NCBI RefSeq assembly: GCF_003334335.1
Contig: NZ_QOWQ01000009.1
DNA from: Escherichia coli
Lineage (GTDB): Bacteria; Pseudomonadota; Gammaproteobacteria; Enterobacterales; Enterobacteriaceae
DNA length: 64,000 bases
Reading direction: 5' to 3' (one strand)
The position numbers are program-made. This document shows positions 13,701 through 16,700 of this stretch, piece by piece (the stretch's first letter is position 1; each line of letters opens with the position of its first letter).

Positions 13701-16700
13701 TACCACGAGCGGCTCCGGTAATCACGGCAACAGGACGAGTGGATTTCATACAATAGCTCTCTTTTTTTGAATATTGTTTTCTAAGTGACAATTAGCTTGC
13801 GACGTGCCGCAAGAAAGATCAACCATCTGGTTGGTTGATATGCGATAGTGATCACAGGACATTTGATAACTTGATGAAAGTACAAGTTTTTATCCTTTTT
13901 ACTGGAGCTTCTAATTAATCGGGTTAAGATAGTTATCTTGAAGAGGTCGTGGGGAAGCGTTATGTATCTTGATACCAGCAACGTACAGAGCCTGAAGGAA
14001 AAGCTGCTGTTATGCGCGGTTAATGAATTTGCCGAATATGGTTATGAAGGGGCCAGGGTCGATAATATTGTTAAGGCTGCGGGGTGTAGTAAACAGACGG
14101 TTTATCATCACTTTGGTAATAAAGAAAATTTATTTATTGAAGTACTGGAATATACCTGGAACGATATTCGACAAAAAGAAAAGGCCCTTGATTTCTCAGA
14201 TCTTCCGCCACAAAAAGCCATTGAGAAAATTATTGATTTTACATGGGATTATTATATTGCTAATCCCTGGTTTTTAAAAATTGTGCATAGTGAAAATCAA
14301 AGTAAAGGTGTGCATTATGCAAAATCACAGCGTCTCTTAGAAATTAACCATGCGCACTTGCAGTTAATGGAATCCTTATTGGATGAAGGGAAGAAACACA
14401 ATATTTTTAAGCCAGATATCGACCCATTGCAGGTGAATATTAATATTGCTGCGCTTGGCGGATATTATTTGATCAACCAGCATACGCTTGGCCTGGTTTA
14501 TCATATCAGTATGGTTTCCCCCCAGGCACTGGAAGCCAGACGTAAGGTCATCAAAGAGACAATCCTTAGCTGGCTTTTGGTTGACCCTTCATCTACCGCG
14601 CACGAATAAAACTGCCATCCGGCTGGCGGGTGAACAGGACCTGTTGATTATTCCCCGTATCAATGGTTAAGCCCGTCACCACGCCGCTGGCGTTCTGGCG
14701 GATTTTCACCATTTGCCCGTTTTGCAAATTACTCAGCGGCTTACCCGCGCCTTCTACCTGCGCCATTGCATAGACATCGGTAGCGGGCAGTCCGTGGTCG
14801 CGGAACAGCTGCGCCATCGTTTTACCGGGTTCGACACGGTAAGAGCGCCATTGATTATCAATTCCGCTATCTGGCTGGAATGGTTGTGTTTGGGTAGTTT
14901 GCGGCTGTTCTTCTGGCTGGCCTTCCTGTATAGGTTCTGGAGCGACCGGAGCCACCTGATCAGGATCATTTTGTGGTGTGACTAATTGCGCCCGCAGCTG
15001 TTCTTCTGTCGGCGGTTGTGATTGCGACTGAATATCTAACTGCGCTTCACGCGTCACCACCGGCGCGTTGGGCGTATCATCAGATGGAAGCAGAAATCCG
15101 ACCACCAATATAATGGCGGCAATAATGATCCCCCGACGATGCATCGGCGGCAGCGGGTCCATGAAGCGAAAATTGTCCGGCGCGTGCCAGACTTTCTCCA
15201 GGGTTGGTTTTAGTTCAAAGCGCCCGGGCATGGTTTCCTCCTGCTCCGCGTCTTGTTCCTCAATCATAGCCTATGAATAAGCTAACGCTATGATGTCCGT
15301 GGTAAACCCGCCTTTATTATATTCATACGGGATATTGCTATTGTTTCTTTTTCCCCGGGATTTGTCATCATTCCTGCGACAAAGTTTTACCCAAAGAAGT
15401 GTGGCTGATATGCTGCCCGCTACTTTTATACCCTAAGAAAGGAAATACGATGACCACCCCAACTTTTGACACCATCGAAGCGCAAGCAAGCTACGGCATT
15501 GGTTTACAGGTAGGCCAACAACTGAGTGAATCTGGCCTGCAAGGGCTGCTGCCGGAGGCGCTGGTGGCTGGTATTGCAGATGCGCTGGAAGGCAAACATC
15601 CGGCTGTTCCGGTTGATGTGGTGCATCGCGCGCTGCGTGAAATCCACGAACGCGCCGATGCCGTTCGTCGTCAGCGTTTCCAGGCGATGGCTGCCGAAGG
15701 TGTGAAATATCTTGAAGAAAATGCCAAAAAAGAAGGTGTGAACAGCACCGAATCTGGCCTGCAATTCCGCGTGATCAACCAGGGTGAAGGCGCAATTCCG
15801 GCACGTACTGACCGCGTTCGTGTTCATTACACCGGTAAACTGATCGACGGCACCGTGTTTGACAGCTCCGTTGCTCGTGGTGAACCCGCTGAATTCCCGG
15901 TTAATGGCGTGATCCCTGGCTGGATTGAAGCACTGACTCTGATGCCGGTAGGTTCTAAATGGGAACTGACTATCCCGCAGGAACTGGCATATGGCGAGCG
16001 CGGCGCAGGCGCATCCATCCCTCCGTTCAGCACCCTGGTGTTTGAAGTCGAACTGCTGGAAATCCTCTAAGCAGCGCATTCTGTTCCCCTCGAACCAGAG
16101 GGGAGCAGGCATTCAGCAATAAACCCTTCAGTTTGCCAAACGGCGCTATTTTGTGTTGCAAAGACCCCGTAAGCGTGTATTTTTGTGAGCTGTTTCGCGT
16201 TATCACCGTGATATGACACTCACTTTAAACATAAAATTAACATTAGATCTAAATCTTAGTATTCATCCCGCGTATTGTTACCTAATATCGATGAGTCCCG
16301 ATACAGATTCGTCGTATCATAGACTGACTAAAGGCCGTAGAGCCTGAACAACACAGACAGGTACAGGAAGAAAAAAACATGGTAGATCAGGTAAAAGTCG
16401 TTGCCGATGATCAGGCTCCGGCTGAACAGTCGCTACGGCGCAATCTCACAAACCGACATATTCAGCTTATTGCCATTGGCGGTGCCATTGGTACGGGGTT
16501 GTTTATGGGGTCTGGCAAAACGATTAGCCTTGCCGGGCCGTCGATCATTTTCGTTTATATGATCATCGGTTTTATGCTCTTTTTCGTGATGCGGGCAATG
16601 GGGGAATTGCTGCTTTCGAATCTGGAATACAAATCTTTTAGTGACTTCGCTTCCGATTTACTCGGGCCGTGGGCAGGATATTTCACCGGCTGGACTTACT

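Follow-up and report, generated by a model that had tools for sequence, protein, structure and literature searches.

In transposon Tn10, the gene for the repressor TetR is divergent from its target, an efflux pump, and two palindromic operators of ~15-16 bp lie over both divergent promoters, with TetR regulating its own gene as well. A second group of TetR-family proteins, the acyl-CoA-responsive regulators (Bacillus FadR/YsiA, Thermus PfmR/FadR and actinobacterial KstR2), represses coenzyme A (CoA)-dependent catabolic operons via short palindromes. In class I CRP promoters with a specific repressor, whether lac-type or CytR-type (deoP2, cdd), CRP sits near -61.5 and the repressor near the -35 element or between it and CRP. 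Here, we describe a locus that resembles each of these arrangements in part. In a 64,000-nt window of Escherichia coli (the whole stretch of DNA analysed here; GCF_003334335.1, contig NZ_QOWQ01000009.1), a perfect 8-6-8 inverted repeat lies between a minus-strand operon headed by an SDR gene and the divergent, plus-strand gene of a TetR-family protein. We consider it likely that this palindrome is the operator of the adjacent protein, the full-length form of YtfA, and that it sits inside a CRP-dependent sigma-70 promoter of the eight-gene operon.

As in Tn10, the TetR gene is divergent from its presumed targets, a palindrome of similar length lies in the target promoter, and release by a ligand is presumed. 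Unlike Tn10, the E. coli locus has a single operator, at the operon promoter only; the operator sequence is unrelated, and the target is a predicted CRP-dependent catabolic operon rather than an efflux pump. The likeness to the acyl-CoA-responsive group lies in the operon, which likewise has genes for a CoA transferase, an enoyl-CoA hydratase and an SDR, whereas the core of the palindrome, AACCAW-N4-TTGGTT, is unlike the boxes of KstR2 and FadR. With the lac and CytR-type promoters the locus would share a requirement for both an inducer and cyclic AMP (cAMP)-CRP. It differs from them in that the presumed repressor belongs to the TetR family and not to the LacI family and in that the positions given here are predicted; in contrast to CytR, nothing at the locus suggests direct contacts between repressor and CRP.

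The palindrome, its conserved core and the TetR-family protein

The intergenic gap spans 212 bp (13750-13961), and the gene calls on both sides are concordant between the RefSeq annotation, an open reading frame (ORF) scan and a family scan. The window is chromosomal DNA, and the 1.8 kb around the palindrome is 100% identical in many strains, including ATCC 8739 and ML35. The palindrome, ATCAACCA-TCTGGT-TGGTTGAT, occupies 13818-13839, with its arms at 13818-13825 and 13832-13839. It was found where a preliminary description of this DNA had placed it, as were a short TGATCA palindrome (13849-13854) and the flanking genes. That description had also put the repeat midway between the two gene starts; it lies closer to the operon, 69 nt from the SDR ATG as against 123 nt from the TetR ATG. 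The palindrome is the sole match in the window even with three mismatches allowed, and the motif search of these 64 kb returned no extra copies beyond chance, two-mismatch matches at 401, 7358 and 52669 being within expectation.

Taken by itself, the palindrome is weak evidence for function and only suggestive. Among 5000 dinucleotide-preserving shuffles of the 212-bp gap, 4.1% have a perfect inverted repeat of 8 bp whose arms are 0-12 nt apart, and the 64-kb window holds ~25 independent perfect 8-bp inverted repeats (39 in overlapping registers, a raw count that corresponds to 0.13 per 212 bp). It is the conservation between orthologous loci that places it far above chance.

We compared the window with 15 orthologous divergent TetR/SDR pairs. 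These came from E. coli E69, E. whittamii, E. albertii, a divergent E. coli, Entomohabitans and Klebsiella spallanzanii; from Salmonella, Leminorella and a Salmonella assembly with 63% TetR identity; and from five metagenomic contigs (TetR 57-67% identical) and two more E. coli variants. A 16-bp core, AACCAT-CTGG-TTGGTT in the window (13821-13836) and AACCAW-N4-TTGGTT as the family consensus, is kept in 15 of 15 loci, at TetR identities down to 57%, while the remaining intergenic sequence has diverged to background. When each 16-mer of the E. coli region was compared with eight diverse orthologous intergenic regions, the core gave 14 summed best-match mismatches against a mean of 46 ± 9 for the 16-mers of the region, and no other segment of the E. 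coli gap came near this conservation. The invariant columns of a 14-locus alignment include AACCAAC, GGTTG and TC, and a motif search among the loci returned matches at orthologous sites only.

The perfect 8-6-8 form proposed earlier holds in Escherichia and a few other orthologues (Leminorella, Entomohabitans), while across all loci only the 6-4-6 core is kept. On the CRP side, the outermost pairs of the arms are broken in 4-6 of the 14 loci without compensation; the promoter-side outer arm is conserved, since it doubles as the -35 hexamer described below. Both the 8-6-8 repeat and the 16-bp core have the form of a TetR-type operator, an inverted repeat of ~15-30 bp with dimer-spaced half-sites. 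The half-sites of the core are 10 bp apart, a distance that suits one TetR dimer in complexes of the TetR/tetO type.

Three further inverted repeats in the gap were considered as alternative operators, namely CTTGCG-N6-CGCAAG (13796-13813), AACTTG-N9-CAAGTT (13868-13888) and AAGATA-N2-TATCTT (13926-13939), and none is conserved beyond close Escherichia relatives. The second reads AACCTG...CAGGTT in E. coli E69, where both arms have changed and the symmetry is kept; in other species the symmetry is lost. The left part of this repeat (within 13866-13888) overlaps a block, ATAAC-N4-TGAAA, that comprises invariant positions of the 14-locus alignment and lies at about -80 to -90 relative to the predicted start of the operon.

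The core travels with the TetR gene. The neighbours of the gene island that carries the operon vary between loci and include ytfB, a LacI gene with hydrogenase genes, a LysR gene, a histidine phosphatase gene, ZinT/Fur and a methyl-accepting chemotaxis protein gene. Across these contexts, at least five in number, the site has been co-inherited with the TetR gene, the sole regulator gene common to all loci. In E. coli EC05, the island sits at a different chromosomal position, at 2.42 Mb.

The presumed binder of the palindrome is a protein of 215 aa encoded on the plus strand (13962-14609), the full-length form of the K-12 pseudogene ytfA. Pfam places TetR_N (PF00440) at residues 19-61 (i-Evalue 3e-14), in agreement with the precomputed Pfam assignments of the orthologues, and the C-terminal ligand-binding and dimerisation domain TetR_C_29 (PF17938) at residues 83-201 (i-Evalue 4.4e-30); a solved TetR-family protein, 3npi, matches it over residues 14-207. 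By these matches the protein has the make-up that defines the TetR family, an N-terminal helix-turn-helix (HTH) and an all-helical C-terminal domain. The HTH region (…CSKQTVYHH[FY]GNKE…) is nearly invariant among orthologues, down to 57% overall TetR identity, and this near-invariant DNA-binding region matches the invariant operator core.

The acyl-CoA-responsive regulators named above, Thermus PfmR/FadR included, are the closest named or solved relatives by sequence; among them, Bacillus FadR and KstR2 both respond to acyl-CoA. The NCBIfam matches of the regulator, at 47 bits, are far under the family cut-offs of 200-250, and it therefore belongs to none of those equivalogs. As a weak hint, the similarity to FadR and KstR2, together with the CoA transferase, hydratase and SDR encoded in the operon, suggests that the effector may be an acyl-CoA or the transported acid.

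Among more distant proteins, two TetR homologues of ~34% identity, from Halomonas and an alphaproteobacterium, have no similar palindrome; their gene context differs and is co-directional, which makes them uninformative. A Spirochaetes metagenome-assembled genome encodes a TetR protein whose HTH region is 49% identical and carries the core-like AACTAAATGGTTGGTT ~40 nt upstream of the start (~4930-4960 of its contig), a single anecdote.

Predicted promoter elements and proposed control of the operon

Next to the core lies a CRP-type site, TGCGA-TAGTGA-TCACA (13841-13856), with one mismatch to TGTGA-N6-TCACA. Its GA and TC positions do not vary among the 14 aligned loci, and each of the 12 tabulated loci has a CRP-type site with 0-2 mismatches 3-4 nt upstream of the core. 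In sequence, it has the form of the CRP sites of class I promoters, which span 22 bp around a TGTGA-N6-TCACA core. The TGATCA that had been described as a second short palindrome turns out to be no separate element but the right half of this site.

On the minus strand, a predicted -35 element, TTGATC (13817-13822), lies in the left arm of the palindrome and consists of the last two bases of the core followed by GATC. It is present in 11 of 12 tabulated loci and in 13 of 14 aligned ones. The spacer that follows is always 17 nt long and unconserved in sequence, and leads to a predicted -10 element, CAAGCT (13794-13799), which reads CATNNT in most relatives (overall pattern CA(A/T)NNT) and whose A2 and T6 are invariant in 14 loci. 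From the end of the -10 to the SDR ATG the distance is 41-55 nt across loci. Transcription of the operon is thus predicted to start near 13787, ~38 nt before the SDR ATG. With a start 7 nt past the predicted -10, the CRP site would be centred at about -61.5 (-60.5 where the gap is 3 nt), one of the class I positions (near -61.5, -71.5, -82.5 or -92.5), the dyad of the palindrome would lie at about -41.5, and the 22-bp palindrome would extend from about -52 to -31. As expected of a TetR-type operator, the site overlaps the predicted promoter of its presumed target, here at the conserved -35.

The distances across loci assign the site to the operon. The centre of the core lies 75.5-81.5 nt from the SDR ATG in all loci (one of them corrected to the called start) other than the most distant, referred to here as L017. 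In contrast, the core and the TetR ATG are separated by anything from 118 to 349 nt. The fixed distance to SDR and the variable distance to TetR indicate that the site belongs to the operon promoter. In Entomohabitans (L006) and E. coli EC05 (L021), 150-210 extra bp separate the site from the TetR gene. The intergenic regions of these two loci measure 423 bp (L006, 4578-5000) and 366 bp (L021, 337-702), and the insert falls between the CRP site and the TetR promoter, leaving the operator as far from the SDR gene as elsewhere.

L017, whose TetR protein is 57% identical, carries two operator copies (4241-4265 and 4288-4309). One occupies the usual -35 position, the promoter-proximal copy being 89.5 nt from the SDR ATG and the second copy ~40 nt from it. 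The second copy (AAACCAACCGAATGGTTGGTTT, listed also as AAACCAACCATTCGGTTGGTTT) lies just downstream of the predicted -10 and, as we read the sequence, would cover the predicted transcript start.

The preliminary description had taken the palindrome for a TetR operator that both represses the operon and autoregulates the TetR gene. The first part stands as the best reading, given that the site is conserved and always adjoined by the TetR gene; the distances speak against the second. A predicted -10 of the TetR gene, TAAGAT (13925-13930, plus strand), was located from sequences anchored on the TetR ATG. It corresponds to a conserved -10 found ~32-37 nt before the TetR ATG, which reads TATGAT in close relatives; the distant ones have TGnTATAGT or TGTTATAAT. 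The palindrome lies ~100 nt upstream of this element in the window and ~250-310 nt upstream of it in L006 and L021, and the motif search of the window returned no second operator copy near the TetR promoter in E. coli. No operator therefore covers the regulator's own promoter as in Tn10, and autoregulation through the palindrome is not supported; the site probably has no control over the TetR gene.

A plus-strand promoter noted by eye on the right arm (TTGATA, 17-nt spacer, GACATT), which would offer a route to autoregulation, is considered less likely; it is not conserved in Salmonella, Klebsiella and the metagenomic loci, and CRP would fall in its spacer. Over the predicted TetR -10 lies a 6-2-6 palindrome, AAGATA-GT-TATCTT (13926-13939), and a direct repeat, TATCTTGA, occurs at 13934 and 13965. 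The palindrome is limited to this E. coli lineage, relatives having ATGATAG followed by different sequence without a palindrome, and it is probably fortuitous.

Two GATC (Dam) sites, one at the flank of the -35 and operator (13816-13819) and one in the CRP-type site (13850-13853), are kept in most enteric orthologues. If proteins occupy both, protection from methylation could follow.

The anatomy of the site, its conservation and its linkage to the TetR gene are shown directly by the sequences; from them we infer the bound protein, the sign of regulation, the transcription start and the nature of the inducer, and propose the following model. In the absence of inducer, a TetR dimer on the 16-bp core would cover the -35 and the DNA between CRP and RNA polymerase, keeping the operon off even with cAMP-CRP present. 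The inducer, probably the organic acid that is taken up or a CoA thioester of it, would bind the C-terminal domain and release the repressor, after which cAMP-CRP could activate the weak promoter. Under control by both repressor and CRP, the operon would need both its substrate and catabolite derepression. Repression is favoured over activation because the site fully overlaps the -35, because most TetR-family proteins are repressors, and because of the second copy in L017, whose predicted position would make sense for a repressor only.

Several points weigh against this model. The orthologous loci share descent, which makes them less than fully independent of one another. Because the inner stem pairs are the same in every locus, conservation by itself does not distinguish between a DNA site and a structure. 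Class II activators classically bind with their dyad at -41.5, and a few TetR-family proteins do activate. A consensus sigma-70 scan of 13650-14060 found no match, so that the promoter is proposed from conservation; such a miss is expected for a weak, activator-dependent promoter. Finally, a literature search with ytfA/yjfZ, the RefSeq protein accessions and the combination of gene contents found no characterisation of the regulator, the operator, its targets or the operon.

Alternative explanations for the palindrome

The TetR protein could instead bind the palindrome in the presence of its ligand and act from -41.5 as an activator or co-activator, in combination with CRP at -61.5. A dyad at this position beside a weak -10 is typical of activator-dependent promoters, and the weak NCBIfam matches of the regulator include annotated activators, FasR and DhaS. 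We nevertheless regard activation as improbable: the site spans the whole -35 and 17 bp further upstream, so a bound protein should exclude sigma region 4 and the C-terminal domain of the RNA polymerase alpha subunit; the second copy in L017, downstream of the -10 and over the predicted start, is in the position of a repressor site; and the great majority of TetR-family proteins characterised are repressors. We think it similarly doubtful that the protein acts as a ligand-dependent co-activator, or as a CytR-like anti-activator, with CRP to control an undescribed CoA-dependent organic-acid pathway.

We also give little credence to the idea that a different factor, encoded elsewhere, binds the palindrome and that the TetR protein binds another sequence or none here. 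The conserved CRP site shows that trans-acting factors do act in the region. However, the motif is present in a single copy per genome, and solely where the island is present, and it follows the TetR gene into unrelated contexts and into taxa with as little as 57% TetR identity. It also fits neither the FNR consensus (TTGAT-N4-ATCAA) nor those of RutR and PdhR, and nowhere else in the region is conservation high enough for a TetR site.

It is very unlikely that the inverted repeat is a minus-strand RNA hairpin acting as a terminator or attenuator. A terminator scan does flag the minus strand, with an 8-bp stem and a 6-nt loop followed by CTTTCTT, and the folded segment reaches -12 kcal/mol (z = -2.6). 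Yet the stem has just 3 G-C pairs among its 8 and is followed by a poor T run (tail CTTTCTTG). The repeat lies upstream of the conserved -35 and -10, and so outside the operon transcript, and the nearest upstream minus-strand gene, ytfB, ends ~750 nt off, across TetR antisense. With no gene ending nearby on that strand, it falls short of the G+C-rich stem, the U run and the place at the end of a transcription unit that mark an intrinsic terminator. The 14 loci contain no compensatory changes, the inner pairs being invariant and the outer three breaking on one side only, and there is no meaningful Rfam match, the single hit scoring 21 bits against a gathering threshold of 60.

That the palindrome arose by chance and has no function, as the ~4% of shuffled gaps holding an equally good repeat might suggest, is refuted by the conservation of its core in every orthologous locus amid randomised flanks.

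The operon, its distribution and significance

The predicted target operon (4826-13749, minus strand) comprises eight genes by the RefSeq annotation and the ORF and family scans. The SDR gene, annotated as '3-ketoacyl-ACP reductase' (12958-13749), comes first and is followed on the same strand by genes for a xylose-isomerase-like TIM barrel (12106-12948), an enoyl-CoA hydratase (11320-12102), a fused CoA transferase (9769-11310) and an FAD oxidoreductase of 693 aa (7691-9772). Then come the three components of a TRAP transporter, the small permease DctQ (7194-7694), the large permease DctM (5850-7151) and the binding protein DctP (4826-5797). The order from SDR through TIM barrel, hydratase and CoA transferase to FAD oxidoreductase is kept in the orthologous loci as far as their contigs reach.

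This gene set looks like a CoA-dependent, beta-oxidation-like or ring-opening pathway for some organic acid; in a family scan of the window proteins, no family model named the substrate. The TIM barrel is near an uncharacterised structure, SMc04130 (3ju2), the FAD protein has no solved relative in a PDB search at E ≤ 1e-10, and PDB searches with both proteins gave no lead on function.

An accessory island of 9.4 kb (4768-14206), located between rplI and ytfB, takes in the whole operon, the intergenic region and the first third of the TetR gene. At its boundary, in the space that separates the ends of rplI and the TRAP binding-protein gene, lies an inverted repeat with 13-nt arms (AAAACGCCGACCA..., in overlapping registers; 4736-4770), which is probably a bidirectional terminator. 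The 3' ends of the TetR gene and the convergent ytfB overlap by 17 bp (14593-14609), with no space for a terminator between them.

In K-12 MG1655, the island is replaced by ~1.1 kb with yjfZ. Homology to K-12 starts at 14207, and of the regulator just the 3' 402 bp remain there, as the pseudogene ytfA, a C-terminal remnant. The preliminary description had suggested searching the genome for further copies of the motif. By BLAST of 5426 complete E. coli genomes, the palindrome occurs at one place per genome in 3143 of them, as compared with 3141 that carry the island; such a search would miss degenerate copies, so that a small regulon may exist. Some 58% of complete E. coli genomes, and many Salmonella, thus carry the pathway, which has been lost from K-12. 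The absence of the island from K-12, where only the ytfA pseudogene is left, explains why the operon has gone unstudied.

Altogether, the core, the CRP site, the -35, the -10 and the expected start provide a concrete regulatory model for an unstudied accessory operon. The proposed logic, a local TetR repressor combined with CRP, is ordinary and unsurprising, and its use lies in annotation and as an entry to an unstudied pathway. The regulator-operator pair could help to find the inducer, and thereby the substrate of the pathway, and may also serve as a biosensor part.

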